UHGV virus genome: UHGV-0285842
Direction: 5' to 3' (one strand)
Origin: a virus
Length of the DNA: 34,986 nucleotides
Below the pieces are notes generated by a model. That model did no database searches, had not been told where the DNA came from, and saw only the letters and a program-made list of their open reading frames with translations. A program made the position numbers and the translations under genes. Each line of letters opens with the position of its first letter. The first letter of the stretch is position 1. Below, piece by piece: positions 1 through 20,644 of this stretch.

Positions 1-2
1 AA

Positions 3-350
3 TTAAAGGTCTGCAAATTCCGCAATCGGTGCCATACCGCGAGATTCAAGGAAGTTCAGTAAGCGGCGCGGAGAAACATTCAAAATGCGCTCTGGCGGAA
101 AATCTACCGCGTCGAGGATTTTAAGACACTCTTCAAATTCCCCCATGGTAAACGCGGTGTGAGAATCCGAGCCTAATGCCACCCAACCTCCAGCATCACG
201 TACCGCTGCGGCTACCTCACGACAGTTGTCTTCACTGCCCTTACGTGAGTGTAAAAATGAGGAATTATTGATTTCCAGCGCCACCTGATGTTTCGCGGCT
301 GCTTCAGCAACGGCTTTCACATCTATTTCATATTTGGGATTCCCTAATAT
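3..350 (-). pseudogene. ycdX: 3' portion of a PHP-family phosphoesterase gene (YcdX-like), apparently truncated at the mobile-element junction
   Basis: Minus-strand ORF ends with stop at 3-5. The C-terminal ~115 aa ([10 protein letters not shown]...[12 protein letters not shown]...APIAEFADL) carry PHP-domain motifs and match my recollection of E. coli YcdX. The N-terminal 60 aa of the ORF (351-533) lack the PHP HxH motif and overlap a well-initiated plus-strand gene at 384. Gene symbol is from memory, not a search. Confidence 0.5.
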
Positions 351-383
351 CATGTACCCACAATAACACGAGGGGGTACAAAA

Positions 384-656
384 ATGAACATCGGCAAAGC
401 AATCATCAACTACGCAGCACGTCGCAACATGGACATTACCTTGATTGGCGATGAGACCGTAGCGTTCTGGGAAGCGGATAACGATTGTGAATGGATGTTC
501 TCCTACATGATTGGTAATGATGGTTTCCTCCACTTTAAAGGCAATGTGTATCTGCCGCAGGAGATTAAAGAAGAATTACCGGCGTGCATCGATACAGACA
601 AGAAGCTGAAAGAAGTAATCAACTTTATCGCTAAAGAGTTTATCAGCAAGAAGTAA
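384..656 (+). CDS. hypothetical acidic protein (90 aa), first gene of left-end cargo pair
   Basis: ATG at 384 preceded by GAGGGGG Shine-Dalgarno; stop at 654-656; next gene starts 12 nt downstream. Confidence 0.6.
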
Positions 657-668
657 GGCAGCAAAACA

Positions 669-1055
669 ATGTTCAATATCATGATTCGTAAATTTGGTGA
701 GATGACTTTCGAGAAAGCTGGTGTTGCGCGTACAGAAGAAGAAGCAATGGCCTTAGTTCTGGTAGCACTGAGATCATCACCTGAGATTATCGACGCTGAA
801 TATGTTGCGGCTGAGGGTGAGATTAAAGAGATTAAAGCGGTTGCTAAGGAATTAGGTGTTAAAGGTTTCCGTAAGCTGAAACTATCCCGCGAGACTTATG
901 TCATTGGACAGCAAGGACAATACCTAGATGAGAATAGCGCGATTGTCCTACTGAATAAGATCACCCGCTATGGTTTCCAGATTGAGCAATATAAAACGTG
1001 TTTCGAATTATACGAAAAAGGTTTGCTGGATACTCTGACCATCGTTCGCGCTTAA
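669..1055 (+). CDS. hypothetical protein (128 aa), second gene of left-end cargo pair
   Basis: ORF tightly coupled to 384-656 and followed by a rho-independent terminator at 1070-1095. Confidence 0.55.
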   Translation: MFNIMIRKFGEMTFEKAGVARTEEEAMALVLVALRSSPEIIDAEYVAAEGEIKEIKAVAKELGVKGFRKLKLSRETYVIGQQGQYLDENSAIVLLNKITRYGFQIEQYKTCFELYEKGLLDTLTIVRA

Positions 1056-1069
1056 TTAATTTCTAATTT

Positions 1070-1095
1070 GGTGGGTGTAATTCCCACCGCTTTTT
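1070..1095 (+). terminator. rho-independent terminator after the cargo gene pair
   Basis: Stem GGTGGG (1070-1075) / CCCACC (1083-1088), 7-nt loop, then GCTTTTT. Confidence 0.6.
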
Positions 1096-1111
1096 AAATG
1101 GAGAATCAAAC

Positions 1112-1192
1112 ATGTTAGCTTTTATCTCATTCGTGGGAGGTAGTCTCACAACCATGATTAGTCTTTCTTATATTGTCGTTAGTATGGGGTGA
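1112..1192 (+). CDS. tiny hydrophobic ORF (26 aa, MLAFISFVGGSLTTMISLSYIVVSMG)
   Basis: ATG 1112 with GGAG 9 nt upstream; entirely hydrophobic; below the ORF-track length cut-off. Sits directly after a terminator, so expression would need read-through. Confidence 0.25.
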   Translation: MLAFISFVGGSLTTMISLSYIVVSMG

Positions 1193-1195
1193 GCA

Positions 1196-1318
1196 ATGAA
1201 ACAATTTCATGATGGCATTTCATCTAAGACATTCAAGAAAGAATATTCGCTGTGTATTAACTGGATTGATTTGATTGGTGCGGTTGTGTTTGGGCTGATT
1301 ATTAGCATTAACTTTTAA
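1196..1318 (+). CDS. small C-terminally membrane-anchored ORF (40 aa, MKQFHDGISSKTFKKEYSLCINWIDLIGAVVFGLIISINF)
   Basis: ATG 1196, stop TAA 1316-1318; polar N-terminus followed by one predicted transmembrane segment. Confidence 0.3.
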   Translation: MKQFHDGISSKTFKKEYSLCINWIDLIGAVVFGLIISINF

Positions 1319-1363
1319 TGATATAAATATATCGTAATTCAAACAACAAGAGGAAATTCTACT

Positions 1364-1783
1364 ATGAAAAAGATTATCGCTGGTGTTGTTCTTGCTCTGG
1401 GTTTGGTTGGTGCTGCGAATGCTAATACCTATACCTATTATGTGTGCAATTCCTACTTCGAATATAAAGGAGATGATACACGCTACCTGAGTGATGGCGA
1501 CCGTTATTATCATGCGCCGTCTGGCAAATACCGTGGTTTTATCGGTGTAAAGGTTCGAGTGAATGATGATAATAGTCAATTTGCTTTCAACGATCCGGTA
1601 TATGATAAGACAATCAAAAGCCCTAAATTGAAAGAAGATAAGAACGAGAAAGAAGAATATTATGGTTCCGAAGATGGTAAAGCCTACATCAAATATCTGC
1701 ATTCTATTGATGGTTCTCCTATATTTGATGTTAAAAAAGGTGATACGTCTTATTCCCTGATTAGCTGCCGTGAAATTCTTTAA
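1364..1783 (+). CDS. secreted Tyr-rich protein with cleavable signal peptide (139 aa)
   Basis: AAGAGGAAA Shine-Dalgarno before ATG 1364. N-terminus MKKIIAGVVLALGLVGAANA is a classic Sec signal with AXA site and no lipobox cysteine; two Cys in the mature part. Confidence 0.7.
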   Translation: MKKIIAGVVLALGLVGAANANTYTYYVCNSYFEYKGDDTRYLSDGDRYYHAPSGKYRGFIGVKVRVNDDNSQFAFNDPVYDKTIKSPKLKEDKNEKEEYYGSEDGKAYIKYLHSIDGSPIFDVKKGDTSYSLISCREIL

Positions 1784-1797
1784 TCTTTAATCACCTA

Positions 1798-1833
1798 GCC
1801 CCTATCGTTATAATACGCGGTAGGGGCGTTTTT
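1798..1833 (+). terminator. rho-independent terminator after secreted-protein gene
   Basis: Stem GCCCCTA (1798-1804) / TAGGGGC (1821-1827) followed by GTTTTT. Confidence 0.55.
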
Positions 1834-1846
1834 GTTTGGAAATGGT

Positions 1847-3526
1847 ATGAAAACTAAACTGTATTCGTATATTCGCTTCTCGTCTATGCGTCAGAATGAT
1901 GGTTCGAGTTATGAACGACAAATCAGGATGGCGAGAGAGGTTGCGGCAAAGTATGACCTTGAACTGGTAAATGATTATCAGGATCTGGGTGTATCTGCGT
2001 TTAAGGGTGCTAACTCCAAAACAGGGGCGCTATCTCGTTTCCTTGATGCAATTGGTAGATCCGTTCCTGTTGGTAGCTGGCTATTCATTGAAAACTTGGA
2101 CCGCTTATCCCGTGCCGATATTGTCAGTGCGCAGGAGTTATTCCTTTCAATCATCCGTAGGGGGATAACCATTGTTACTGGCATGGATAACAAGATCTAC
2201 TCGCTGGATACTGTTACCGCTAACCCGATGGACCTGATGTTCTCCATCCTTTTATTCATCCGTGGTAATGAGGAAAGCCAGACTAAGCGCAATCGTACTA
2301 ACTCAAGCGCACTGATTAAGATTAAAGCCCATCAAGAAAATCCCCAGAATCCGGCAGTGGCAATCGAGGAAGTTGGAAAGAATATGTGGTGGACGGATAC
2401 CACTTCCGGTTATGTGTTGCCTCATCCTACATACTTCCCTGTTGTTCAGGAGATTGTGGAATTACGGAAGAATGGACGTTCAACCGCCGAAATACTGGAT
2501 CACCTTAACGAGACATATACACCGCCACCAGCGGTTAGTAATAAGAAGCATTCAAAATGGTCACGGGCAATGGTTGAAAGGTTGTTCCATACCCGCGCTT
2601 TGATTGGTATCAAGGAAGTCTCTGTAGATGGTGTTAACTATGAGTTAAAGGATTATTACCCTCGTGTTATTGATGATGCTACGTTCTATCACCTTAAGAA
2701 AAATATTGGTGCTAGAGCATGGAACTTTGGAGACAAGGAAGAAGTTAAACCGATCCCCCTGCTTAGTGGTATTGGCCTATTGAAATGTGATCATTGCGGT
2801 TGCGCTATGGTTAAAGTGAAGGGAACGAACAAACGTTCTGACCAGTATCGTTATACATGTGATGCGACCCGTTCACGTAGACTTGATTGCGAGCATCCAA
2901 ACTGGAGTTTTCGAGGTGATCAATTAGAGAAAGCTGTATTGCAATTGCTGGCTGATAAAATCTGGATTGCTGAGGACAAGGCTAATCCGGTTCCGGCGTT
3001 GAAAGTACAGGTTGATGAAATATCACGCAAGATTGATAACCTGATTGCCCTTTCTGCTATGACAGGAGCAACGAAGGAGCTAGCCGATCAGATTACTACC
3101 CTCAATAGCGAGCGTGAAACACTCTACAATCAGATCAAGATGGCAGAAGAGGAAATGTATTCTGTGGACTCTCAAGGCTGGGAGAAGCTCGCAGAATTTG
3201 ATTTAGAAGATGTTTATAACGAGGAACGACTAAAGGTCCGGTTTAAGATTAAGCAAGCTCTAAAGCGGATCGGGTGTAGCAGGATTGACAGAAATAAAAA
3301 CTTGTTTGTGCTGGAATACATCGATGGAAAGACCCAGAGAGTTGTAATAGAAAATTCAAGAGGAACGAGGAAAGGCCGGATATTCATTGATTTGAAAACT
3401 ATCAATGATAGGCAGATTCTGGAGAGTAACGGGCTTGTTTTGCATCCATGTTTAGACATGCTGACAGATAAGAACTGGAAACCAGAAGAGGAAATACCAG
3501 GTCCATTACAGGAATTTGGAATTTAA
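1847..3526 (+). CDS. large serine recombinase (integrase-type)
   Basis: N-terminal resolvase-type catalytic domain (YIRFSSMRQ, DLGVSAF, LDRLSR), central recombinase domain, Cys-rich zinc-ribbon (CDHCGCAMV...YTCDA...LDCEH) and C-terminal coiled coil. ATG 1847 preferred over the track's TTG at 1832. Confidence 0.85.
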   Translation: MKTKLYSYIRFSSMRQNDGSSYERQIRMAREVAAKYDLELVNDYQDLGVSAFKGANSKTGALSRFLDAIGRSVPVGSWLFIENLDRLSRADIVSAQELFLSIIRRGITIVTGMDNKIYSLDTVTANPMDLMFSILLFIRGNEESQTKRNRTNSSALIKIKAHQENPQNPAVAIEEVGKNMWWTDTTSGYVLPHPTYFPVVQEIVELRKNGRSTAEILDHLNETYTPPPAVSNKKHSKWSRAMVERLFHTRALIGIKEVSVDGVNYELKDYYPRVIDDATFYHLKKNIGARAWNFGDKEEVKPIPLLSGIGLLKCDHCGCAMVKVKGTNKRSDQYRYTCDATRSRRLDCEHPNWSFRGDQLEKAVLQLLADKIWIAEDKANPVPALKVQVDEISRKIDNLIALSAMTGATKELADQITTLNSERETLYNQIKMAEEEMYSVDSQGWEKLAEFDLEDVYNEERLKVRFKIKQALKRIGCSRIDRNKNLFVLEYIDGKTQRVVIENSRGTRKGRIFIDLKTINDRQILESNGLVLHPCLDMLTDKNWKPEEEIPGPLQEFGI

Positions 3527-3563
3527 GCGGCCTAAATCGACGTATAACGAGCTAAAACAGTTA

Positions 3564-3588
3564 AGGGGTACATCCGTACCCCTTTTTA
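3564..3588. terminator. hairpin terminator between convergent recombinase and nuclease-like genes
   Basis: Stem GGGGTAC (3565-3571) / GTACCCC (3576-3582), 4-nt loop, TTTTT downstream. Confidence 0.55.
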
Positions 3589-3599
3589 ATTTAATTGTA

Positions 3600-4598
3600 T
3601 TAAAGAGCCTCTAAAGGGCTTAAATCGAGTTCTAAGTCTTCCGGTGTTAAATCAGCTAACGGTGCATTCATCCACTGCGATAAATCTCGTTCTATGTCTT
3701 CATCACTAATGTAGTTGTTCAGATTGATTGCGTTGGTATCATCAAAATACATTGGCTTAGATGGGTTGGTGTGGATGTATTCATTGATGAATGATTTAAC
3801 ATCTTTCAGCTTGCTAATCGGTAGCGTTTCTGTGAATCCGCTATTCATTACCTTACGTGGGATTTTCTTGCCCTGAATATTCTTTTTAATCCCCATTTCT
3901 AAATCACCAGCTTTCCATCCAATGTTAAACAAATGTGAGCATTCAAAGGTGATTTTCTCGCTGGTGTGCTTCTGGTGTTCTCTTACCCGTTGCATCGGAT
4001 CTTTGCGAGTGGTAATTCCATATTTGAAAAACTTCTCGCCAACACGAATTAGATAAAAGTGCATAGGGCGCTGTGCAAACTTGTTTCTGATAACCTGTTT
4101 TCTACCATTCTGAATTGATTTAAGTACACCCCTAACCAAAGGGCATGTTAACCCGCCTTGTCTGCGGTTATTGTGTAAATCACCTTTCTTGTGAATCTTT
4201 CCGTGGCACTTACAACGAAGAATTAGTTTAGTGTCAACACCCTGATAAGGTTCAGCCAGACCTAACACATCCCACCCTATCGGCTTGTAGAACTTGCGAG
4301 CGTTTTCTAAGTGTTCTTCTTCGGTAAATCTAAACTTCTTCTTAGGCGGTGATACTCTATCTTTGCCAGTAAACTGACCAGTTAGAACATGACTAATACA
4401 TGGCGTTTTAACCTTTCCGTTAACTTCTATGCAAACTTTGGTGTTCTGGAATGGTTTCTTTACAGGAAGCACAAAACCACTGTATAACCATCCATGCACT
4501 TGACAAACTTTAATGATTCTGGTTTCATATTCGACCGGAGGGGTCGCACGTTTGCTTTTTGCGGTAAATTCGATATCCTTTGCTAAAGTAGTATTCAT
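3600..4598 (-). CDS. putative T5orf172 / GIY-YIG-like domain protein with Cys/His cluster (possible nuclease)
   Basis: Start ATG 4598 with GAGGAC Shine-Dalgarno (track ORF extends further upstream without a ribosome-binding site). Motif HFYLIRVGEKFFKYGITTRKDPMQRVREH resembles the T5orf172 signature; Cys/His cluster CKCHGKIHKKGDLHNNRRQGGLTCP upstream of it. Assignment from memory only. Confidence 0.4.
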   Translation of the reverse strand: MNTTLAKDIEFTAKSKRATPPVEYETRIIKVCQVHGWLYSGFVLPVKKPFQNTKVCIEVNGKVKTPCISHVLTGQFTGKDRVSPPKKKFRFTEEEHLENARKFYKPIGWDVLGLAEPYQGVDTKLILRCKCHGKIHKKGDLHNNRRQGGLTCPLVRGVLKSIQNGRKQVIRNKFAQRPMHFYLIRVGEKFFKYGITTRKDPMQRVREHQKHTSEKITFECSHLFNIGWKAGDLEMGIKKNIQGKKIPRKVMNSGFTETLPISKLKDVKSFINEYIHTNPSKPMYFDDTNAINLNNYISDEDIERDLSQWMNAPLADLTPEDLELDLSPLEAL

Positions 4599-4633
4599 AG
4601 TAGTGTCCTCGAAAATAATAAGTTCACTACTAT

Positions 4634-5074
4634 TTATTGAGAAAAATTTGTTGTAATGGTTGAAGACCACGGGCATGAGTAGTAACCACGACCGCCACCG
4701 ATCAAACAAATGGTCGGACGGAAACCAGTAAGATCACAAAATGAATCAGTGTCATGCGCAGGAGAACGATGCTCTGCTTCGTCAGAGAAAATGTTTGCCA
4801 CCGGAGATTCCACTTTAACTTCCGGTGCTTCTTCAACATCTGACTTAACTTCTTCAACCACTGGTTCAACTTCTGGAGATTCTTCTTTTGTTTCTTCAAT
4901 GACGATCTCAGGTTCTTTCATTGCTTCAACCAGAGACGGATCAACTTCGTCGAATACCACTTTATCATCTGCGGTATATTTGTCTATAATGAAAAAATGG
5001 TCAGAAATATAGCTAACGTCGCCAGCATATTCTAACAAAAAAGCGCCCACAAGAGGCGCTTTTGTTTTATCCAT
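4634..5074 (-). CDS. hypothetical acidic Glu/Val/Pro-rich protein; start uncertain
   Basis: ORF in a low-complexity region. Candidate ATG at 5074 overlaps the stop of the M15 gene and would place the 5043-5059 hairpin inside the coding sequence; alternative internal starts exist. Confidence 0.3.
   Translation of the reverse strand: MDKTKAPLVGAFLLEYAGDVSYISDHFFIIDKYTADDKVVFDEVDPSLVEAMKEPEIVIEETKEESPEVEPVVEEVKSDVEEAPEVKVESPVANIFSDEAEHRSPAHDTDSFCDLTGFRPTICLIGGGRGYYSCPWSSTITTNFSQ
5037..5063. terminator. bidirectional hairpin at the end of the late/lysis operon
   Basis: Stem GCGCC (5043-5047) / GGCGC (5055-5059), A-run upstream and T-run downstream; immediately 3' of the M15 gene stop (5067). 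Confidence 0.5.
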
Positions 5075-5420
5075 TCCACCGTGATTTTTTTGATCTGGAA
5101 TCAATATGCGTAAAGGTTTTATATTTTCCTAAGCCGTATTGAGTAGGATATTTCCCATCAAGATAAGCATGAACAATATCAGGCGAGACACCCTTGATAA
5201 CAATGTCAGCCGCACGGCCTCGAACATGATAGCTATTGGTTGCACCGCCAACATTCTTGTTATGAGTCGGGCAACGGTTGCCACTGTTAATAATCACTGG
5301 TTTACCGAAGTGCTCTCGTACATCCTCAAGAATCACCAGTAATTCAGCGTCGATTGTATCATAATCACATTTTCCGCATTTACATTTAAATTCCTTGCGA
5401 GAAAAATGCTTACTTAACAT
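5067..5420 (-). CDS. peptidase M15-family zinc peptidoglycan peptidase (candidate endolysin)
   Basis: FSRKEFKCKCGKCDY...SGNRCPTHNKNVGGATNSYHVRGRAADI...THID matches the M15A/YcbK-type zinc-binding pattern (H, D, H). ATG 5420 with GGGGG Shine-Dalgarno. Confidence 0.7.
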   Translation of the reverse strand: MLSKHFSRKEFKCKCGKCDYDTIDAELLVILEDVREHFGKPVIINSGNRCPTHNKNVGGATNSYHVRGRAADIVIKGVSPDIVHAYLDGKYPTQYGLGKYKTFTHIDSRSKKSRWNG

Positions 5421-5429
5421 ATTACCCCC

Positions 5430-5777
5430 TTAGATCATTTCGAAGATATAACCAATAAAGCGCATACCCTTGATATAATAAGGAGCAGTGCCTACACACA
5501 CCGCGCGTGCATCGCCCAGACAGTTAAAGCTATAAGGATTAACCACATCAACTTCTTGTCCTACACGAAAACGATACTTAGGACGTTTAGCCAATGTAGC
5601 GACACAAAACACGGTCCCTTTTTCATGATCGCGGATACATTCTTTATATTGTTTATGTTTAACTCTCTTCGCCTCAAAATCATGTGTCATAGATTCTGGG
5701 CTAATGCCATTAATAAAAATACCGGAAAGCTGATCGACCGGATAAGTAGGAAATTCAGTGAAAATATTTTTAGCCAT
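5430..5777 (-). CDS. hypothetical protein (115 aa)
   Basis: ORF with GGGGG Shine-Dalgarno 7 nt before ATG 5777; stop overlaps the ribosome-binding site of the M15 gene. Confidence 0.55.
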   Translation of the reverse strand: MAKNIFTEFPTYPVDQLSGIFINGISPESMTHDFEAKRVKHKQYKECIRDHEKGTVFCVATLAKRPKYRFRVGQEVDVVNPYSFNCLGDARAVCVGTAPYYIKGMRFIGYIFEMI

Positions 5778-5815
5778 GTTATACCCCCATAAGTTTCTAT
5801 GAGGGTATTTATGGA

Positions 5816-6499
5816 TTAAACGTATTTCATGCGCGATTTAATGTGCTTATTGATGTTTTCAAGCATCATTGCTTCGTTGCTTTCCCACGATCCTAGCGTC
5901 GAATAACGAGTAGAAATTTTATCCGATTTAACGGCAACAATTCGCTTGCTCTGTTTCTGTATGCGTTTCTCTAAGCGACGTTTTGCCACCGCCGATCCAT
6001 TCCTAGCGCGTTTGGTTCGGGATTTCTTAGGCTTGTACTTCTTCATGATAAAAGTCCCTTCCTTGTTCTCTACCTTGATGAAGTTGCCGTTTTCGAGGTT
6101 ACGCATCATCTTACCGCCTTTGATGGCCTTAATGTTCCCGTGGGCGTCTAAGACCTTACCGTTGGCGATTGGAACTAGCTTATTGATTTTGCCCCCATCG
6201 AAATAGTGTTTCAGATAGTCGTCCTGACTGCCGATCTTCTTATCCTTATCCCTTGCGCCCTTGATGAAGATTTGGTGTCTCGTCCCTGATCGGTTCTTGT
6301 AGTTGGTATTACCTACAGCTTGCTGAGTCCAGCGAGTAGGTCTATCAACATTCTTGTTAATCTTCTTCTGGAGTGCTCTGGAAGCAAAGATCGCCCCTTC
6401 CCCTAGTGCCCTTTCGAATGTATCGGTTGCCTTTTCAGACCATTGCCGTAACGCTTTCTTAGTCCTTAGAGCGTTTCGTTTATTGGTACTGGTTGCCAT
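5816..6499 (-). CDS. hypothetical highly basic Lys/Arg-rich protein (227 aa)
   Basis: ORF with AGGGGGCTAAC ribosome-binding site before ATG 6499; strongly basic composition. Confidence 0.55.
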   Translation of the reverse strand: MATSTNKRNALRTKKALRQWSEKATDTFERALGEGAIFASRALQKKINKNVDRPTRWTQQAVGNTNYKNRSGTRHQIFIKGARDKDKKIGSQDDYLKHYFDGGKINKLVPIANGKVLDAHGNIKAIKGGKMMRNLENGNFIKVENKEGTFIMKKYKPKKSRTKRARNGSAVAKRRLEKRIQKQSKRIVAVKSDKISTRYSTLGSWESNEAMMLENINKHIKSRMKYV

Positions 6500-6500
6500 G

Positions 6501-6671
6501 TTAGCCCCCTAATAACGAAAAGACCCCCGCCAGTGTCCTTAGCAATTGTTCATCCACGGTCATAGCCGGGAGTTCAAGCCCAAAGGACGTAAGCAGAGGT
6601 CTAATTGCTACGTTATAAGTGAGGGCGACAATCAAGAGATAACCAAAATATTTCTTAAGTTTATTCTTCAT
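6501..6671 (-). CDS. small single-pass membrane protein (56 aa), lysis-associated candidate
   Basis: Internal ATG 6671 preceded by AAGGGGTGAATAT; hydrophobic segment YFGYLLIVALTYNVAI. Confidence 0.4.
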   Translation of the reverse strand: MKNKLKKYFGYLLIVALTYNVAIRPLLTSFGLELPAMTVDEQLLRTLAGVFSLLGG

Positions 6672-6690
6672 ATATTCACCCCTTTTATTA

Positions 6691-6969
6691 TTATTTTTGT
6701 TTGAGTATGTCGAGAACTTGGTCAAACTTAGCGTCCATCGCAACCACTTTCTTCTCTATACCGTGTAGTGTTTGTTCCATTTGGTAAACACGTTCAGCAA
6801 TCTGAGTATGGTTATTCTGCATCGTCTCAAACTTCTGGTTTAACAATGCGTCGCTGGATTCCAATTTCGACAATCTATTTTCTGTGGCTAATTGATTTCG
6901 GTGAAGTCTCCAAAGCCCACCACAAATTAAGGCGATAACACCGATACCGCCATATATAATTTCAGTCAT
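6691..6969 (-). CDS. membrane protein with N-terminal transmembrane segment and coiled coil (holin- or i-spanin-like)
   Basis: ATG 6969 with GGGGGCG Shine-Dalgarno; transmembrane stretch IIYGGIGVIALICGGLW then heptad-rich periplasmic/cytoplasmic part. Confidence 0.45.
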   Translation of the reverse strand: MTEIIYGGIGVIALICGGLWRLHRNQLATENRLSKLESSDALLNQKFETMQNNHTQIAERVYQMEQTLHGIEKKVVAMDAKFDQVLDILKQK

Positions 6970-7011
6970 TACGCCCCCGATATTTTTATATAATTTAATG
7001 GCAGAATTATT

Positions 7012-7057
7012 TAGATAAAAATAATCCCGCCTAACTCAAAAGAATTAAGCGGGATTA
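7012..7057 (-). terminator. hairpin terminator downstream of the J-like gene
   Basis: Stem TAATCCCGC (7022-7030) / GCGGGATTA (7049-7057), 18-nt loop, U-run on the minus-strand transcript. Confidence 0.5.
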
Positions 7058-7074
7058 ATTATTAGAATTAAATT

Positions 7075-10000
7075 TTAAGAAACAGAAATACCAGTAGCGG
7101 CTTTCTTAGTTACCATTACCGTTAGATCGCTGATATATGCACTTGGGTTATAGTTGTTAACGCCCTTACAGTAAACTTCAAAAGTCATTGTTACTGCCCC
7201 GTGTCCGGCTGGCATGTCAATAACTCCACTGTACATACAGCCAGAAGTTGCAGTGCGATCATATAGAACACCACCATTTTTCTTAACGATTAGTCGGCAA
7301 GTATCCCAATGATCGCTACTTTCGCCACGACGAACAGACCCGTTATGATGAATCGCTGGAATCACTATTTGGCGATCGAATGGATGATCATCTTCGACCC
7401 TTACAGTGATTGCACCATCAGGCCAGTTTGGTTGGCGATGTGGGAAACTCCTACCAACCACTTTCACGAAGTCACCACGCACCTGATTAGCATCAAGCAT
7501 ACCCAAAATGCGGCAACTTGAATTAATCGTTACGTTGTTCATTTCGCCGGAATCAGCCACCAAATGACCACGAATATTAGCGTGTCTAAAATGACAAGTG
7601 CCATCTTTGCCGATATACCATCCATCGTTACCATTCCAGTTATAAGACTGGATATAGTTACCAATTTTAGCATTATCGATAGAGCCATCAATGATATGAC
7701 CTGTTCCGATCTGTGCGTGTTGGATGTGAGCGCCGTTAATCTGGGCTGTGCCGATCTTAGCCGTGGTGATACTAGCATCACTAATCTGGGCTGTGCCAAT
7801 TGCAGCATTACGAATCATCGCATTATCAAGATAAACTTTGTTATCTTCGATGCCAAACGGACAAACTTCTGATCCGTCTTGTGGAGCTACCGCGATTTTA
7901 TCAGCCGTAAAGATGATTCTTGTCGGTTCTGCCGGATCATTGGTTGCGCTCATATGAATACCAGCCACGCGACCATCTGCATTAACTGCCAGATTATATT
8001 TGCTGTTAATGGTTCCCTTCAAAGCATCGATTTTTACATCTGCTTCCTGATTCACACCAGCAATCTTGCCATCCATTTCTACCCGAACTTGATCAATCTT
8101 ACTTGCGCTTGCTGCCTCACTGGTAGCAATTGCTTGTTTCAGGGTAGTAGCGGATGCGCTAACTTCTTTGGTGATATCGCCTTTCAGTTCAGCTTTAACC
8201 TGATCAATCTTAGTTGCGCTGGCTTGCTCACTGGTAGCAATCAGACTCTTGAGAGTATCGGCTGAGGCTTGGACCGTCTGCCCTGTCTCGGTAGTAATCT
8301 GTTTATGCATTGCATCAATCTTAGCATCGGCATTAGCGCCAGCTTGAGCAATAGCATCCGCGATGGTTTCATCTAAGCGATCTTGTAAACCAATCAGGTC
8401 TTCCAGTGCTTCTTTGTCCTGATCGTCCCAGCTAATGGTAGATTTCATTTGCATGAAATACGGTTCAGACCAAACAGCATCATCCATGCCGAAAATATCA
8501 TAGTGAGCACCACGGATATAATAATCACCGTCAGCCAAATCAAAGGAAGTATGACTAACGCTATTGGTAGTCACTGCCCTTGCATCGGAGAAAGTATTAT
8601 CGGTTGCATACTGGATGATTGACCCTGCATAGTCATGTTCTACGTCATCCGCCCAGCTAACAAACGCAGTATTAAAGCCACCACGCGCACTAAAACCTTT
8701 CATCGGCTTATGTTGTGGGTTGATAGCCACTAAACGCGCTGGGGCGCTCTCTGAGTTGTTATAGCCCTTGACTGATACTTCTACCGTCAATTCACGGGAA
8801 AGGCCGTTAAACTGGTTCATATCAAGCGTATAAGTCCATGATTCAGGATCGCGGGTACGGTACTGAATAGACTTACCAGCCTTGTTAGTTACCTTGATAA
8901 TGTATGCTTCAAACAGGTCACTAAACTTGTTAGCTTCACCGTTGATCATCACATCTAATTGTTGCTGATTTTCCCATTCGATAATCAGATCATTGCCTTC
9001 GAAAGTACCAGGCGTGCTACCCTGATTTTTGATTCGAATAACCGGAGTCGGCAATTCATAGGTAACAGTAGGATTCTGGTTAACCAGTTCCACCCATTCG
9101 GAACGAGCAATAATACCGAAAGCACAAACGCGGTAATCGTAGGAGCGATCTTTTGCCAGTGCATTGATATTGAAAATTTGCTGTGAAGTCTGCCCCAGCT
9201 TAATCCAGTTAGGCGATCCACTTACACGGTAATCAATCTGGAAACCGTAGCGGTTAAAATCTTCCGGTGCATCCCATGTCAAAGTAACGTTTTTACCGTG
9301 GATTGTCTCACCAGTTGCCTTAATTCTGAAATTAGTAGGCTTCTGTACTGTCATTGAATCCGGTAAACCAGTAGGTCTATTGTCTGGAGTCGCCGCATAG
9401 TTCAGGTCAGTATAAACCTGAGAATTATATTCTGTAGCGGTGATAGTCATCATCCCAGCAATACCAGAATCAATCGAGCGATCAATTGCAGTAATACGCC
9501 ATAAGGAATTATTCAGCTTCAATTCATCATATGTTACGCTGATAACGTCCCAAACTTCGGCAGTGAATGCGTCAGTAGTCATAAAGCTGATAACCTGAGT
9601 GATACGAGATTTATTTCGTTCTACACTCGCTAGTTTATCAATCTGGGCTTTAGACTTAACAAAACGATATTCAATATCTTTAGCGATAATTCGACCATCT
9701 TGACGAATAGTAGCATCGTTTTCAGCATCAGCCGGATAACGTAGCATTTGCTCTGAATAGTCGATTGATGGTTCTTGATACATCGCGTTAATGGTATTGA
9801 AATAACCGTTAGTGCCACCTGTTTTCAGTGATACCTTACCCATCATGATATTGTCTTCATTGAAGGTATGCTTAACAATATCAGGAGCATCCAGTTTCAG
9901 CGTAATACGTCCAAAGGATTCGAACATCACCCCGCCGAAAGTCTGCATAAGGCTAGTTAAGTTCTCTTTAAAGCTGGCGTTCGGATCACATGCACCGTTG

Positions 10001-10821
10001 GAATGTAAATCCATCTGGCGTACTTGTTTACGCACTTTCAGGAATGAATCAACGTTAATATTTTCAATCGGTACACTAAGACCATACTTTGTATTTGTCA
10101 GATAATGGAAAATCTGGTCCACGCCGTTAGTGCTAGCCTCAATAGCATTGGTTTCAAGGTTACGAATCTTTAAGCCCATAACATCGACCGCTACCTGGCT
10201 ATTAGGCTGGAGAATATCAACACCAGCAGCCAAAGATTTGTCATCACGACGTAAAACAATACACATGGTCGCAATGCCGTTACCCTGATACCGATCATCC
10301 CAATCAGCGCCCAAATGATGTTTAGCTAAATCCAATGCAGTGTTAGGATTTTTACCCGTGCGAAACTCGACTTCTAAAACTTTGCGGTATTCGTCTTTAA
10401 TGTTTCCTTTATCGAGAATGCCATCACGAATTGTCATATTCTGGCTAATGAGAACGTTTTTATTATCGATGTGCAGTGCTTTAAAGTGATCGATCTCACC
10501 TTCGGCAATAGCAAAAATTTGTACCAGCTTGTTATTTTCACGCTGTGAAATTGCCTTGTAAACGCAGATTGCACCCGTGCGGGTAGTACCAAAAAGAACG
10601 GGTAATACTGTTTTCGGATCGTTTGATGTTCCTAGTGTCACCGCATTATCTGGGCTTTGTACTTTCGGTGTTTTTGGTGCGCCTACAGTGGAAGCGATCA
10701 AGGTCATTGCACCAGCAGCCATCCCGATAGCGACTGCGGTCATAACAGAAAATGTTGCGGCTGCCGCCATCCCCGCCGAAGCACCAGCGATCACCGCGCC
10801 TACTAATATTTCAAATCCCAT
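7075..10821 (-). CDS. central tail fibre / host-specificity protein, lambda gpJ-like (1248 aa)
   Basis: N-proximal block LVQIFAIAEGEIDHFKALHIDNKNVL resembles the lambda J N-terminus; fibronectin-III-like segment; C-terminal 120 aa (DDHPFDRQIV...MPAGHG...MVTKKAATGISVS) parallels the lambda J receptor-binding end as I recall it. Start overlaps the stop of the upstream gene (TAATG). Confidence 0.85.
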   Translation of the reverse strand: MGFEILVGAVIAGASAGMAAAATFSVMTAVAIGMAAGAMTLIASTVGAPKTPKVQSPDNAVTLGTSNDPKTVLPVLFGTTRTGAICVYKAISQRENNKLVQIFAIAEGEIDHFKALHIDNKNVLISQNMTIRDGILDKGNIKDEYRKVLEVEFRTGKNPNTALDLAKHHLGADWDDRYQGNGIATMCIVLRRDDKSLAAGVDILQPNSQVAVDVMGLKIRNLETNAIEASTNGVDQIFHYLTNTKYGLSVPIENINVDSFLKVRKQVRQMDLHSNGACDPNASFKENLTSLMQTFGGVMFESFGRITLKLDAPDIVKHTFNEDNIMMGKVSLKTGGTNGYFNTINAMYQEPSIDYSEQMLRYPADAENDATIRQDGRIIAKDIEYRFVKSKAQIDKLASVERNKSRITQVISFMTTDAFTAEVWDVISVTYDELKLNNSLWRITAIDRSIDSGIAGMMTITATEYNSQVYTDLNYAATPDNRPTGLPDSMTVQKPTNFRIKATGETIHGKNVTLTWDAPEDFNRYGFQIDYRVSGSPNWIKLGQTSQQIFNINALAKDRSYDYRVCAFGIIARSEWVELVNQNPTVTYELPTPVIRIKNQGSTPGTFEGNDLIIEWENQQQLDVMINGEANKFSDLFEAYIIKVTNKAGKSIQYRTRDPESWTYTLDMNQFNGLSRELTVEVSVKGYNNSESAPARLVAINPQHKPMKGFSARGGFNTAFVSWADDVEHDYAGSIIQYATDNTFSDARAVTTNSVSHTSFDLADGDYYIRGAHYDIFGMDDAVWSEPYFMQMKSTISWDDQDKEALEDLIGLQDRLDETIADAIAQAGANADAKIDAMHKQITTETGQTVQASADTLKSLIATSEQASATKIDQVKAELKGDITKEVSASATTLKQAIATSEAASASKIDQVRVEMDGKIAGVNQEADVKIDALKGTINSKYNLAVNADGRVAGIHMSATNDPAEPTRIIFTADKIAVAPQDGSEVCPFGIEDNKVYLDNAMIRNAAIGTAQISDASITTAKIGTAQINGAHIQHAQIGTGHIIDGSIDNAKIGNYIQSYNWNGNDGWYIGKDGTCHFRHANIRGHLVADSGEMNNVTINSSCRILGMLDANQVRGDFVKVVGRSFPHRQPNWPDGAITVRVEDDHPFDRQIVIPAIHHNGSVRRGESSDHWDTCRLIVKKNGGVLYDRTATSGCMYSGVIDMPAGHGAVTMTFEVYCKGVNNYNPSAYISDLTVMVTKKAATGISVS
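8088..8258. repeat. imperfect ~60-bp direct repeat (period ~111 bp) inside the J-like gene
   Basis: 8088-8148 and 8199-8258 are ~80% identical (both contain GATCAATCTTA...CTCACTGGTAGCAAT), encoding repeated ATSE-AS-KIDQV peptide units. Confidence 0.6.
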
Positions 10822-11240
10822 TATTCACCCCCGAATCTATAAACTTGTTCATAGTCAATGTCTGAAACAGGAATGGTCATCCAGATACCATCTTCTTCAA
10901 CGAGGCCATAACCGGAATAATGAGGAACTACGGAATAATATTTGCGGTTTCCTAATTTGTGGGCTGTGACCAGTAAGTCGCCGTCCTGTAAATCATCAGT
11001 GACTAATTTGAAATGTTTCTTAATTGGTTGAAGGATATTTGTGTATCCGCTTAATTCTTTGCAGATTTTCAAGCCTTCTTCTTTAGTTGAATATTTTTTA
11101 TAAAGAGAATTATATAGGTCAGTACCAGCGAGAATATCGATGATCTTACATGCAATTATATTGCAATCATTCTCGCCTTGAACGAACTCCTGACCTATTA
11201 AAGAATTGATGTAATCGGTGATAAGCCTAGTTTTTAGCAT
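10821..11240 (-). CDS. tail assembly protein, K-like position, with NlpC/P60-like Cys motif
   Basis: ATG 11240 with GGAGG Shine-Dalgarno (track ORF start at 11396 lies inside the upstream gene). GENDCNIIACKIID and downstream His residues suggest a small cysteine-peptidase fold; position between L-like and J-like genes. Confidence 0.45.
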   Translation of the reverse strand: MLKTRLITDYINSLIGQEFVQGENDCNIIACKIIDILAGTDLYNSLYKKYSTKEEGLKICKELSGYTNILQPIKKHFKLVTDDLQDGDLLVTAHKLGNRKYYSVVPHYSGYGLVEEDGIWMTIPVSDIDYEQVYRFGGE

Positions 11241-11286
11241 GTTGAATACCTCCATGCTGTTATTTACTAGGCTTAGGGAGAAGGGA

Positions 11287-11940
11287 TTATTTCTTCGATG
11301 AATGCCACTTGCTTTCCGATTGCCAGCGCCCGGTCCTTGAGAAGAATAGATCATTCTCGTTTCCGGCATAGGATCGGTGGATACCATCGGAGGCATGACT
11401 ACGAGCGTTTTTATCTAGAACTTCCCAGATACTATTAAGCTGAAATTCTGATTCGTTTTTACACTCATCATCTTCATGTTCGATGTTAATCCCGATGGAA
11501 TCGACTACCCCACGGAAAACAGGGTAAGTGGTTTCAACCTTGCCCGTGTTAGGGTTCAGGAACACCATTTCGATTTTCACATCTGATTTATCGAATTGCT
11601 TGTTTCGAATCAGGGTAATGTATTCCTCGCGAACGTTAGAAACGGTTACGTTAATCCCGTTGTTGTTAATCTCCTTCTCTTCGGTATTCGATGAGATTTG
11701 AAGAAAATCACCCGTTGCGAGATACGTAAATCCGTTATAGTCCAAATCGAAATACCCATCAGTAAGCCGTAGAACGTCCCCTGACGCTGTTATCACTTCG
11801 ATAATGTGAAACATCGATCCAGTGGAAAAAAGCTGCGGTAGCGTCAATCTAGTCACGTTCTGACCTGTCTGGTCGTTGTAGACCTCGATGAAGTCCAGAT
11901 TAGTGCATAGTTTGCTGAATGATTCCTGAATAGTTGCCAT
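11287..11940 (-). CDS. minor tail protein, L-like position (217 aa)
   Basis: ATG 11940 overlaps the stop of the upstream gene (TAATG); synteny with lambda L. Confidence 0.5.
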   Translation of the reverse strand: MATIQESFSKLCTNLDFIEVYNDQTGQNVTRLTLPQLFSTGSMFHIIEVITASGDVLRLTDGYFDLDYNGFTYLATGDFLQISSNTEEKEINNNGINVTVSNVREEYITLIRNKQFDKSDVKIEMVFLNPNTGKVETTYPVFRGVVDSIGINIEHEDDECKNESEFQLNSIWEVLDKNARSHASDGIHRSYAGNENDLFFSRTGRWQSESKWHSSKK

Positions 11941-12500
11941 TATACATTCTCCACTAATTCGAATTTCATCTTGCCAATCTGGGCGATCTTCCAATCGATG
12001 TTTTCAGTTTTGAGAACAAATTCACCTTCTACGTTCTGATACTTGATCACCTCACCCGCCAGGACGTTCTGACGCAAGTTAGGGAAGAGTTTCATTTCAC
12101 CACCTGATTTCACGTCTTCGGTGATCGTGTAGATTTTCTTGTGGTTCTCAAACTGGATGACAGTTCCCGCTTTCAGTGTTCCGGTGAAGTTGGAGATTCT
12201 CACCTTACGCCCACCGCGAGCAGTACCAGCAGCAGCCGTTACCATCTGGCGTACATCACCTGTATATTTTGAAAAGTAAGACAGTGGCACACTAAAAGGA
12301 CGACCAAAAAGGTGACGTGCTACAAATTCTTTTACTTCGTTAATATCCTGAGCCATGTAATTCGCGGTAAATTCTGCTTCGTAAAAATGGATGCCAGTAA
12401 AGCGACGCTGGAACTTACCGGAGATAGATTGCGCCTTGAAGAAAGGCTGTTTTGATTTAAGAGTAAAATCTGTGATTTTAATATTCTTGGATTTGAACAT
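11940..12500 (-). CDS. minor tail protein, M-like position (186 aa)
   Basis: ATG 12500 with GGGGG Shine-Dalgarno that lies in the 3' arm of the 12504-12547 hairpin; follows the tape measure gene. Confidence 0.45.
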   Translation of the reverse strand: MFKSKNIKITDFTLKSKQPFFKAQSISGKFQRRFTGIHFYEAEFTANYMAQDINEVKEFVARHLFGRPFSVPLSYFSKYTGDVRQMVTAAAGTARGGRKVRISNFTGTLKAGTVIQFENHKKIYTITEDVKSGGEMKLFPNLRQNVLAGEVIKYQNVEGEFVLKTENIDWKIAQIGKMKFELVENV

Positions 12501-12503
12501 AGA

Positions 12504-12547
12504 AAAGCCCCCATAGTTTTATGATTATTTATCACTATGGGGGCTTT
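12504..12547 (-). terminator. 13-bp perfect hairpin with U-tract immediately after the tape-measure stop; 3' arm contains the next gene's Shine-Dalgarno
   Basis: Arms AAAGCCCCCATAG (12504-12516) and CTATGGGGGCTTT (12535-12547), 18-nt loop; on the minus-strand RNA the stem is followed by UUUUCUAUG (start codon of the 11940-12500 gene). Confidence 0.6.
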
Positions 12548-12550
12548 TAA

Positions 12551-14980
12551 TTACATCTTACGACGCTGAACGTCTTCTATCGCCTGAGCAACAAACTTAG
12601 CGTGACGTTTGATAGCATCCATGACCATCTTGTCTGAGCTATTAACGTTGCCGTTAATGTTCAAAGGCGCATTTACTTCAATCGGCTGAGAGTTACCACC
12701 ACCTGATTTTTGAGCAGCAAGGAAGTCTTTCAAATCACCGTTAGTACGCTGATCAACTACTCGTTCACCCTTATCAAGCAACCATGTACCCTCACGAGGG
12801 ATGTTATCAATACCATCATGAGCCATACCGCTAACGTTAGTAGACTTGATGTTTGCGATGTTCCCCATGTTCTGAGAAACAGCCAATGCAGCAGCCGCGA
12901 TTTTTTGACCTGTGGTGACGTTGGTCGGATCGTTCCATGCATCGGTAGCAGCCGTCCACATGTTCACCGTCGCTTGTCCAATGGAGAATGCTTTATGAGC
13001 ATTGAAAGCCATCTGCATAGCTTTAGTGTTTTCCTGCCCGAAGAGAGTCATTGCAGCAGCAAAACCGCCGTACATATCATCGGCTATTGACTGGCGAGCA
13101 TCAGCATATTTCTTCTCAATTGCAGCCATTCGTTTTTGATGGTTTTCATTGAGTTTTTCTAATGCTTCCATCCGTTTAGCCGGATCATTAATACCGTCAA
13201 TCTTGAGTTTATCGGTCTTATAATCTTGTTCAGCATCCGATTTCTCTTTATCGATTGCATTAAATTTAGCAAACGGATTATTTGAGTCTTGATAATCATA
13301 ACCACTAGTTAATTGATTGGTTTTATAACCATCCATTCCCTGTAAAGAATTTTCAATCTGAGAATAGTTTTGCTCGGTATCGTTCACACGACGCATATAT
13401 TCTTCGTAGGAGATAGCTTTACCATCAAGTAACCGTTTATGGCTTTCTAGCTCGTTGTCCCTGATTTGTTGCAATTGTGTTAAAGCATTCAGAGCATCAA
13501 TCGGATCAGCACCCAACATCATTTTATAAACGTTTTCAGTATTCTGATCGATTAGCGCCTGGCGTTTCGCGGCTGCGTCTTCCTGAGAGATTAAGCCCAG
13601 AGCTAACGCGTCGTTCACATCTTTTAAGCTGTTTTGCAACTGGCTATTTTGAGAAGTGATAGACGCTGCAACTTGCCCTTGCAATTTAACATCAAGTGCA
13701 TTCAGTCGCTTGATTGCATCCTCGCGTGCTTTCTGTGCTTTTTCTGCGGCTTCCTTAGCCTTTTTAGCTGCCTCTTCCGCTTTCTTGCGTGCTTCTTCTT
13801 CGGCTTTCTTCTCATTACCAGACTTACCCAATGATTCTGGTCTTACTGGTTTATTTGGTATAGTCAAATCACGGTTAGGATCTGCCTTGCGGGTTAGATG
13901 TTCCCCGTTATCGACAACAATCAGAGAGCCATTTTTCTTATAAGAATCACCAAAACGTTTCTTAAATCCTTCAACATCAAAGCCAGCAGTACGAGGATCG
14001 ACACCAGCACCACGGATCGCGGCCTTTTCCCAATCTGCCAGATTATTCCAACGCTTTTCTTTATTGTACTTGTCAATAATTTTTTGAGCGTCTTTATGGT
14101 TGGCGTTAAGAATACCGCCAGTTGCGGTCTTGCCTTCTTTATTCAGTCGATCTAATGCCCTGAATAGAGAACTCTTTTCCCAATCAATATTAAACCAGTC
14201 AAATAACCAGTTTAAACTATCAACCAGCGGACCAGAAATGGTCATACCGACACCTTTCAGGTTATTTTCCAGCTTATTGATATTTTGAGAAAATTTATCA
14301 TATTTTTTAGCGTTTTCTTCGGTGACGTTAACAGATTGATTCTGAATAGCGATCATCGCCTCTTGAGCAGTATTATATTTCTCAAGCTGGCTGGTCATAT
14401 GGCTTGAATCACTGGCTAAAGATTCCATCATGAACTTGATTTCAGCCATTGATTTTCCGGCTTTCTTCATGTCATAGAACACTTGGATCGCCGCTTTCAT
14501 ACCACCTTGCGGATCAGTCATGAAGTGAGCATAGTTTTCTAACTTAAGGCCAACCGATTCTAAGTCATCGGCAATACCGCCACCGTTAGCCCATGCATCA
14601 CCCATTTTATCTAAGGTGTCTTTGTTGATATCACCAAATTTTTCAACTGTTAGGCCAGTGCCAGCAAATTCCTTTTCTAGTCTTTGAAGGGATTCAATCG
14701 AGAGTCCGGTCGCCTTAGATACTTCTGAATACTGTTTAACGTATTCCGCACCAGCTTTAGCGGCTGCAACCACTGCGGTCGCAACTAAGCCGATACCACC
14801 AGCAGCTAAACCAGCAGAGCCAGCAATACCACGAAGAGATCCAGTCAGACCAGACAAGCCACCACCAAAATCAATATTACTTGCCTTTTCAGACAAATCA
14901 TCGAGCAGGTCAGCGGCTTCACTAGTGCTTCTCTTTAGCCCTTTATTATCCCCTTCTATTGTTACTATATGTTTTGTCAT
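12551..14980 (-). CDS. tail tape measure protein (809 aa)
   Basis: Size and position after the G/T-like chaperones; N-terminal hydrophobic Gly/Ala segment, long coiled-coil Lys/Glu/Ala region. ATG 14980 with AAGGGGTAA. Confidence 0.8.
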   Translation of the reverse strand: MTKHIVTIEGDNKGLKRSTSEAADLLDDLSEKASNIDFGGGLSGLTGSLRGIAGSAGLAAGGIGLVATAVVAAAKAGAEYVKQYSEVSKATGLSIESLQRLEKEFAGTGLTVEKFGDINKDTLDKMGDAWANGGGIADDLESVGLKLENYAHFMTDPQGGMKAAIQVFYDMKKAGKSMAEIKFMMESLASDSSHMTSQLEKYNTAQEAMIAIQNQSVNVTEENAKKYDKFSQNINKLENNLKGVGMTISGPLVDSLNWLFDWFNIDWEKSSLFRALDRLNKEGKTATGGILNANHKDAQKIIDKYNKEKRWNNLADWEKAAIRGAGVDPRTAGFDVEGFKKRFGDSYKKNGSLIVVDNGEHLTRKADPNRDLTIPNKPVRPESLGKSGNEKKAEEEARKKAEEAAKKAKEAAEKAQKAREDAIKRLNALDVKLQGQVAASITSQNSQLQNSLKDVNDALALGLISQEDAAAKRQALIDQNTENVYKMMLGADPIDALNALTQLQQIRDNELESHKRLLDGKAISYEEYMRRVNDTEQNYSQIENSLQGMDGYKTNQLTSGYDYQDSNNPFAKFNAIDKEKSDAEQDYKTDKLKIDGINDPAKRMEALEKLNENHQKRMAAIEKKYADARQSIADDMYGGFAAAMTLFGQENTKAMQMAFNAHKAFSIGQATVNMWTAATDAWNDPTNVTTGQKIAAAALAVSQNMGNIANIKSTNVSGMAHDGIDNIPREGTWLLDKGERVVDQRTNGDLKDFLAAQKSGGGNSQPIEVNAPLNINGNVNSSDKMVMDAIKRHAKFVAQAIEDVQRRKM

Positions 14981-14991
14981 AAATTACCCCT

Positions 14992-15333: not shown

Positions 15334-15362
15334 TTGCCGGAAATAGAAATTCAGAAGCGGGT

Positions 15363-15671: not shown

Positions 15672-15720
15672 TCTTGTTTCCTCTTAAGTTAATTAGATAT
15701 GTTTATTTAGAATTGGAAAC

Positions 15721-15744
15721 AAAAAAGCCACCCCGAAGGATGGC
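15721..15744 (-). terminator. intrinsic terminator (UUCG-loop hairpin plus U6) after the tail-tube gene
   Basis: Minus-strand RNA reads GCCAUCCUUCGGGGUGGC followed by UUUUUU. Confidence 0.65.
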
Positions 15745-15753
15745 TAGATAATA

Positions 15754-16224: not shown

Positions 16225-16278
16225 TATTCTTTTCCTTCTATTTTAAACAATAGGGCACATACCCGTAATTCTATTTAT

Positions 16279-16886: not shown

Positions 16887-16888
16887 AA

Positions 16889-17185: not shown

Positions 17186-17223
17186 ATAAGAATCCTTAGC
17201 GGAGATTTCTCCCCGCTTTCCAA

Positions 17224-20631: not shown

Positions 20632-20644
20632 CTAATCACCTCAC

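Follow-up and report, generated by a model that had tools for sequence, protein, structure and literature searches.

The question raised by the left end of the virus genome UHGV-0285842 is whether its first few hundred bases are host chromosome and, if so, what kind of element interrupted the gene that lies there. The whole stretch analysed, hereafter the window, is 34,986 nucleotides (nt) long. An earlier note, made from its letters alone, had read positions 1-383 as the junction between a host and a prophage inside a PHP-family phosphoesterase gene resembling ycdX. Having compared this segment with occupied and empty sites in complete genomes, we consider it highly probable that it holds the left attachment site (attL) of a temperate tailed phage of ∼36-37 kilobases (kb), integrated in the coding sequence of Escherichia coli ycdX via a serine integrase.

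The left end of the window is ycdX DNA up to position 341

The empty site of E. coli K-12, where ycdX is b1034, served as the reference for the host side. The reverse complement of K-12 ycdX matches window positions 3-341 without a single difference (339/339 nt), the first mismatch falls at 342, and the sequence beyond it is unrelated. In a tblastn comparison with K-12, YcdX residues 133-245 were identical to the window fragment at 113 of 113 aligned positions. The fragment (3..341, minus strand, stop codon at 3-5) is the 3' part of the gene for a PHP-family trinuclear-zinc phosphatase, and the structures 1M65, 1M68 and 1PB0 have the YcdX sequence. Codons 135-245 are host DNA, and so are bases 1 and 2 of codon Asn134, which is rebuilt across the crossover core; the ∼115 C-terminal codons estimated in the earlier note were thus right to within about 3. 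In the related genomes NZ_CP038857 and NZ_CP024131 the Prokaryotic Genome Annotation Pipeline (PGAP) labels the equivalent segment 'zinc-binding phosphatase, missing N-terminus'. The guanine-plus-cytosine (GC) content is 0.487 at 1-341, 0.395 at 342-1831 and 0.416 in the remaining window, in agreement with the suggestion that the left ∼350 base pairs (bp) are the more GC-rich.

A minus-strand open reading frame (ORF) of 176 residues (3..533) is open from a GTG at 533 through phage DNA into the C-terminal part of YcdX. As had been suspected, this frame runs into sequence without PHP motifs: the ORF, its extension past the junction included, gave no Pfam match at E≤0.01. The extension is antisense to the first phage gene after attL (384..656, plus strand, 90 residues), which is indeed well initiated, with its ATG at 384 behind GAGGGGG at 370-376, and which belongs to a conserved phage family (phrog_6147, E=4.8e-33; no Pfam family). 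PGAP pseudogene calls and tblastn extensions in two related prophages (loci L004 and L005) and in Salmonella gave the impression that the phage end partially rebuilds ycdX, but this was rejected as an artefact. Past the junction the supposed homology has few identities, needs an 8-residue gap and meets a stop codon in Salmonella, and the recurring '(G/A)(N/D)VH' is the antisense of the ATG-AAC-ATC start of the first phage gene.

Neither of two patterns that would speak against a junction was seen, namely an intact PHP gene continuing through 350-533 or a lack of PHP homology in 1-350. Bases 1-341 are host DNA, the prophage runs from 342 on, and ycdX is a true insertional pseudogene in the source strain. 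Scans of the whole window for Rfam families and tRNA genes found nothing, and the attachment site is therefore not of the tRNA type.

The crossover maps to a TT dinucleotide in codon 134 of ycdX

We aligned the K-12 empty site and the attL of the window with the left and right attachment sites (attL and attR) of four complete genomes, NZ_CP038857, NZ_CP024131, NZ_CP069522 and NZ_LS992166. At the breakpoint, the sole bases common to the bacterial attachment site (attB), attL and attR in these genomes are the TT at window positions 340-341 (AA on the ycdX coding strand), which marks the central crossover dinucleotide. The attB reads …CATATTTGGGA-TT-TCCGGGATGG… (GGGA[TT]TCCGGG around the core), attL reads …CATATTTGGGA-TT-CCCTAATATC… (GGGA[TT]CCCTAA), and attR, in the related genomes, reads …CGTT(A/C/T)GGG-TT-TCCGGGATGG… (xGGG[TT]TCCGGG). 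The alignment with an uninterrupted ycdX locus that the earlier note had recommended for finding the breakpoint thus places it at 340-341, with divergence from 342, at the left edge of the 340-383 bracket that had been proposed. The TT supplies bases 1-2 of the Asn134 codon, directly after His131-Pro-Gly, and the element is accordingly inserted into the coding sequence, as had been claimed.

A short core duplicated at both junctions had also been anticipated. Sought via the attR of the related genomes, it proved to be shared over 2 bp only, which is expected because the enzyme is a serine recombinase. The attL itself (319..367) is composed of the host half-site B (319-339, ACATCTATTTCATATTTGGGA), the TT and the phage half-site P' (342-367, CCCTAATATCATGTACCCACAATAAC). 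The phage attachment site (attP) reconstructed from these comparisons, GTTATTAGGGGTTGACTACGTTAGGG-TT-CCCTAATATCATGTACCCACAATAAC, is an imperfect palindrome on the TT, its half-sites matching at 18 of 26 positions where ∼6.5 matches would be expected by chance, while attB is far less symmetric (7/21). Judging from the sizes typical of large serine recombinases, the functional sites would extend over ∼50 bp for attP and ∼40 bp for attB. A 2-bp crossover, a palindromic attP and a dissimilar attB are the established signature of this enzyme group, exemplified by phiC31, Bxb1 and A118.

A search of the window found neither attR nor the right half of ycdX. The other end of the element lies outside the window, as had been supposed, and in the related complete genomes it carries the N-terminal 405 nt of ycdX. 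The two ycdX halves in those genomes are 23.5-37.6 kb apart, across terminase, portal, capsid, tail and endolysin genes.

A large serine recombinase is encoded 1.5 kb inside the junction

The reading of the locus as a serine-integrase element is borne out by a gene 1.5 kb inside the junction (1847..3526, plus strand), whose product combines Resolvase, Recombinase and Zn_ribbon_recom domains. It has 559 residues from the ATG at 1847, within an ORF of 564 residues that opens at a TTG at 1832, and PGAP calls a 559-residue 'recombinase family protein' in all relatives. The Pfam matches are to PF00239 Resolvase (E=9.6e-15, residues 11-158 of the 564-residue ORF), PF07508 Recombinase (E=4.1e-9) and PF13408 Zn_ribbon_recom (E=2.4e-10), and the best PHROG match is to phrog_95 'integrase' (E=1.3e-63). 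The R-x-S context is present in YIRFSSMRQ, with Arg10 and Ser12, and an LDRLSR motif follows further on; Ser12 is the predicted catalytic serine. Heptad-like sequence at ∼385-445, judged by eye only, is suggestive of a coiled coil. The catalytic domain, the recombinase and zinc-ribbon domains, the 2-bp core and the palindromic attP were all found, and these are all the defining features of large serine recombinases that can be looked for in a sequence. The 559-residue protein thus appears to have catalysed the integration into ycdX.

A different agent might nevertheless have inserted the element, for instance a transposase or a tyrosine integrase, or it might have entered by homologous or illegitimate recombination; the recombinase would then be a passenger, perhaps an invertase or resolvase. 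The protein has a weaker PHROG match to 'DNA invertase', and its nearest phage-borne relatives, the YbcK-like proteins of lambdoid phages (∼32% identity), are not known as the integrases of those phages. However, the annotations of the related prophages list no other recombinase, and no tyrosine integrase or transposase either, except for secondary copies of the insertion sequence IS1 (in two relatives). The junction moreover bears the serine recombinase signature: the overlap is 2 bp, and there is neither a target-site duplication nor a long core in common. The domain set of a large serine recombinase is complete in the protein, and sequence differences in its DNA-binding domains go along with the insertion site, as described below. 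Insertion by another agent is for these reasons extremely improbable.

The same site is used in 27 E. coli genomes and in other genera

Among 5,426 complete E. coli genomes the ycdX junction was counted where at least 80% of window bases 1-700 were covered. It was present in 27 (∼0.5%), from varied hosts and countries. A reciprocal search found a continuous attB in 5,379 of 5,406 matching genomes, the remainder again being 27. A junction that recurs identically in 27 genomes is not a chance feature. The phages occupying the site range from 99.7% down to about 85% nt identity across the junction region, yet the TT is the same even in phages of only 84-88% nt identity.

The integrase family, for which roughly 670 homologues were found, is not confined to E. 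coli. Prophages of Salmonella enterica with integrases 71-76% identical to that of the window lie behind csgG-ycdZ-ycdY, and their break in ycdX is at the same position and codon (…GGATT|CCCTAATATT…). An Edwardsiella tarda prophage (integrase 61% identical) lies beside a ycdY-like gene, and its break, …ATGATT|GCCAAACAT…, is again in the same codon. The host flanks at these junctions are species-specific. Since the breaks in both genera fall at the same codon, the target site is conserved across genera, probably because it encodes the invariant active-site segment HPGN(P/H)KY. A pan-genome table for Cronobacter sakazakii likewise has an entry 'Prophage (Csak) – ycdX' (Grim et al. 2013, PMC3680222).

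In NZ_CP069522 (FDAARGOS_1267; locus L004, 790-841) ∼50 bp of host-side ycdX beside attL reads GNPRYPIDFKAVSE, unlike the E. coli allele, and the remainder of the ycdX fragment is E. coli-like. This patch may be foreign ycdX that arrived together with the phage, through recombination or, for instance, after an imprecise excision from another species. A scan of species-representative genomes for the integrase returned only a 512-bp contig labelled Actinacidiphila cocklensis (JANCAF010000145.1, locus L033). The integrase fragment on it is 99% identical to the E. coli phage integrase and was set aside as almost certainly a contamination of the assembly.

Related integrases occupy hicB and codB, and specificity tracks one region of the protein

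Three IMG/VR contigs carry the same phage-side half of attL joined to a different gene, hicB, the antitoxin gene of hicAB. About 30 complete E. coli genomes have a prophage at the hicB site, and the integrases of these phages share 85-94% identity with that of the window. The insertion divides hicB into pieces of 312 nt and 120 nt (in strain H2, NZ_CP028733, locus L034, whose hicB-type integrase is WP_024233971, the pieces lie at 36350-36661 and 1066-1185; also in L017, L021, L030 and L039-L041), the protein loses its C-terminal part, and the toxin gene hicA is intact. The attB in hicB reads CTCCTGTTTAGGT-TT-GCCAATTCGCC. Relatives in E. fergusonii, with an integrase 73% identical, sit inside codB, which encodes cytosine permease. 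Their contigs (L046 and L047, 4041-4990) read GGTTGCC-TT-GCCTAACAT against the K-12 attB GGTTGCC-TT-ACCCACC, and the codB C-terminal fragment that is left has 301 residues, starting near CodB residue 119-122. Both sites are consistent with crossover at TT, although at hicB a shared run of 9 bp prevents pinning it to 2 bp. The P' half-site is kept in all ycdX-site and hicB-site prophages, and the two types of phage have an identical right half of attP and a different left half.

To relate these sites to the enzymes, 15 site-assigned integrases (8 ycdX, 7 hicB) were compared, all of them 559 residues long and alignable without gaps at 85-100% identity. Complete separation of ycdX- from hicB-type enzymes was seen at 22 of the 101 variable positions, and all 22 fall within residues 196-351, that is, in the recombinase and zinc-ribbon domains. 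Elsewhere, discriminating positions numbered 0/34 in the catalytic domain and 0/16 in the coiled-coil and C-terminal region (Fisher p=2.6e-8). The integrase of the ycdX-site prophage in NZ_CP069522 is a mosaic in this respect: it is 90.9% identical to some hicB-type enzymes versus 88.6% to that of the window, and it has the ycdX-type residue at 22/22 discriminating positions. In the established model of Rutherford and Van Duyne, the att half-sites are reported to be read by these same two domains, recombinase and zinc ribbon. The link between integrase type and insertion site is a correlation that fits this model.

Strain UTME-9 (NZ_CP157110) is a double lysogen, with prophages at both ycdX (L038, 3380273) and hicB (L039, 2773187), each with the cognate type of integrase (99.6% and 87.3% identical to that of the window, respectively). 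This suggests that the two systems work orthogonally and that neither phage excludes the other.

We tentatively propose, with a little less than even confidence, that ycdX, hicB and codB form a natural retargeting series, in which the switch between ycdX and hicB would take at most 22 substitutions (in 196-351) and one attP half-site. If this is true, swapping the 196-351 block would reprogramme target choice, and the lineages would provide a compact, tractable map of integrase specificity determinants in a system native to E. coli. It is also possible that disruption of the hicB antitoxin or of ycdX gives the lysogen a selectable phenotype.

Proposed mechanism and mobility of the prophage

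In the mechanism that we propose, the 559-residue recombinase would bind the ∼50-bp imperfectly palindromic attP and the ∼40-bp attB inside ycdX. It would make 2-bp staggered cuts at the central TT of both sites, followed by rotation of the half-sites and religation, with attL (window ∼319-367) and attR (outside the window) as the products. YcdX would thereby be split into residues 1-134 followed by PNVVNP(Q) and a stop, and a promoter-less part comprising residues 135-245. Because serine recombination is conservative, excision would restore ycdX exactly, presumably with the help of a recombination directionality factor of the phage.

Several points weigh against a functional temperate phage with its own serine integrase. 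The closest integrase in the phage collection is at most 32% identical (range 22-32%), and no candidate for a recombination directionality factor was identified. The attR was taken from related genomes, as it falls outside the window, and the correlation of integrase with site could partly reflect co-inheritance of a linked block. By megablast, no genome in the phage collection covers more than 11% of the backbone, all of it in tail-fibre modules, and since that collection has no close isolated phage, the infectivity of the phage is presumptive. Finally, no joined attP was found in IMG/VR with either a strict 40-nt or a looser 22-nt pattern, and we therefore infer, rather than observe, that the phage is able to excise. 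A single attP match in a metagenome (L042) was dismissed as chance, since only the pattern matches and the flanks are unrelated and AT-rich.

These points could alternatively mean that the element is an immobile prophage remnant, its junction an old scar passed down vertically or distributed with the whole locus by homologous recombination, and not made by recurrent site-specific integration. Besides the missing attP form in viral and metagenome collections and the lack of a close cultured phage, some relatives of the prophage are clearly decaying: an IS1-associated deletion has shortened that of NZ_CP038857 to 23.5 kb, and that of NZ_CP024131 has received an IS1 insertion. However, the ycdX fragment is undecayed, being identical to K-12 at 339/339 nt, and, compared with the L005 prophage, none of the major structural genes in the window is truncated (those for terminase, portal, capsid, a tape-measure-like protein, the tail tip and endolysin). 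Furthermore, phages whose nt sequences diverge by 12-16% share the TT, as do those of Salmonella and Edwardsiella, where the flanks are specific to the host. The junction is present in just 0.5% of E. coli genomes, which come from varied hosts and countries, and this fits sporadic acquisition. On balance an immobile remnant is unlikely, and site-specific integration by a serine-integrase phage remains the preferred reading.

The interrupted host gene is predicted to be inactive

At the attR of the related genomes the ycdX frame reads …SHPGN-PNVVNP(Q)-stop and yields a product of 140-141 residues, and the C-terminal fragment at attL (112 codons) has no start codon of its own. A promoter and terminator scan of positions 1-2000 returned 4 sites versus 5.2 expected in shuffled sequence, none of them placed to read from the phage into the ycdX fragment. 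The zinc ligands of YcdX we take to be His7, His9, His15, His40, Glu73, His101, His131, Asp192 and His194, and His, Glu or Asp residues do occupy all nine positions in its sequence. On this list, the split would divide the ligands 7 + 2 between the halves. The first seven (His7 to His131) belong to the half that lies at attR in the related genomes, and the window holds only residues 134-245, not a complete PHP domain from HxH through DxH. The gene is thus interrupted rather than reconstituted, which is what the earlier note had expected, and since neither half should be able to form the trinuclear zinc site, it is predicted to be inactive.

The order of genes around the target is ghrA-ycdX-ycdY-ycdZ, and a ycdWXYZ operon has been described (PMC7046640). 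The host would lose a PHP phosphatase that the literature ties, via ycdY, to swarming, and a polar effect on ycdY and ycdZ may be added to this loss. The host probably bears only a small biological cost.

The position of the insertion also allows for a reversible switch, or 'active lysogeny', in which precise, non-lethal excision under particular host conditions restores ycdX and possibly the expression of ycdY and ycdZ, as known from Listeria phi10403S in comK and Bacillus subtilis SPbeta in spsM. The insertion is intragenic and in a conserved operon, conservative recombination would restore the gene exactly on excision, the ycdX target is conserved in three genera, and the best-known switch prophages also use serine recombinases. 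Against this, the collections searched showed no sign of excision, and no regulatory link to the function of ycdX is visible. The sister phages in hicB and codB occupy unrelated genes, suggesting that targets are picked for their sequence conservation and not for their biology. Moreover, ycdX is dispensable in many settings, and there are Salmonella lineages with ycdX frameshifts (PMC7046640). We consider such a switch quite improbable, less so than an insertion by another agent, and prefer ordinary lysogeny by a serine-integrase phage.

Gene content of the prophage body

The prophage body occupies 342..34986, and by synteny with NZ_CP038857 the window ends ∼1.2 kb short of attR; the full prophages in loci L005 and L003 measure 36.7-37.6 kb, and strains 14EC007, TO6 and UTME-9 are examples of lysogens with a full-length prophage. 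In the window, the 384..656 gene is followed by a second phage gene (669..1055, plus strand, 128 residues; phrog_14908, E=9.4e-19), which in several hicB-site phages comes directly behind attL, and by a 139-residue ORF (1364..1783, plus strand) with a signal-peptide-like N-terminus, MKKIIAGVVLALGLVGAANA, and no Pfam or PHROG match. The position of this ORF, between attL and the integrase gene, is a slot of variable cargo, in which relatives carry other genes. A terminator-like hairpin at 1798-1827 lies 3' of the ORF.

The slot just downstream of the integrase gene (window 3600-5100; also in L003, L004, L036 and L043-L047) is variable cargo as well. The window has a 369-residue endonuclease-like protein there (phrog_681), and relatives have a GIY-YIG nuclease, a UvsW-like DEAD-box helicase and a UvsY-like recombination mediator. 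The UvsW-like and UvsY-like proteins represent T4-type recombination genes, which are unusual for a temperate phage.

The remainder of the window carries, on the minus strand, a tailed-phage genome with genes for terminase, portal, capsid, tail tube, a tape-measure-like protein, tail tip and endolysin, none of them shortened relative to a related prophage. In the phage collection, the capsid protein finds matches of 27-46% identity to siphoviruses of the Rhodobacter, Dinoroseobacter and Halomonas type. The tail-fibre module (window 16569-19419; ORF 17224..20631, minus strand, 1135 residues, and small ORFs at 16279-17185) is 97.1% identical in nt over 2.1 kb to the gene for the long-tail-fibre distal subunit (gp37-like) and an adjacent gene of virulent T-even phages (Escherichia virus KFS-EC), and relatives carry genes for a 'receptor recognizing protein Gp38'. 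It looks as if the receptor-binding module was very recently exchanged between a lytic myovirus and the temperate phage of the window.

Window positions 31480-32990 (∼1.5 kb) contain no ORF of more than 64 residues, gave no Rfam or tRNA match, and are unannotated in all related prophages too. A TAGTGTAGGTTT-like iteron is present in 5 or more copies at 32036-32148, with a strong GC skew and then a low-GC stretch (GC 0.30), and a 20-25-nt motif, GTATTTATA..GAAAAA, occurs three times at the borders of the region. These features look like those of a replication origin and/or an operator region.

Comparison with known systems

Integration into ycdX is an ordinary kind of prophage junction, to which the ycdX/hicB/codB series adds modest extra value. 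Literature searches on ycdX or hicB with prophages or integrases turned up no account of the system save for one line in the Cronobacter table, and the att sequences had no match among the rows listed in the supplementary text of the large serine recombinase catalogue of Durrant et al. (2022, PMC10083194), where a prior listing is possible. The attB, attL and attR, together with a predicted attP with a TT core, are now defined for an integrase whose native hosts are E. coli, Salmonella and Edwardsiella. Serine integrases of this sort are wanted as orthogonal tools for genome engineering, and the ycdX, hicB and codB lineages offer a ready-made comparison for how such enzymes change targets.

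The approach is the same as in that catalogue, in which attB and attP were also reconstructed from occupied and empty genomes. Most large serine recombinases were reported there to target conserved sites inside coding sequences, and close orthologs may hit divergent genes (PMC10083194). The Cronobacter sakazakii prophage (PMC3680222) shares the locus, ycdX, but its source is a single table line, and neither the type of integrase nor the att sites or the breakpoint are given there.

With the integrases of phiC31, Bxb1, TP901-1 and A118/LI the enzyme of the window shares the domain set (a resolvase domain with R-x-S, recombinase and zinc ribbon), the 2-bp crossover, the ∼50-bp imperfectly palindromic attP and a different, less symmetric attB. 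It is, however, distant from the characterised serine integrases in sequence. They are mostly from Gram-positive bacteria and actinomycetes, whereas the present enzyme is enterobacterial and known from sequence alone.

The way in which the host gene is split into two non-functional halves is like that of Listeria A118/phi10403S in comK, of Bacillus subtilis SPbeta (SprA) in spsM and of the skin element (SpoIVCA) in sigK. The comK, spsM and sigK elements have a demonstrated, regulated excision that is tied to host physiology, whereas the ycdX prophage, described here from its sequence, has no evident link to the function of YcdX.

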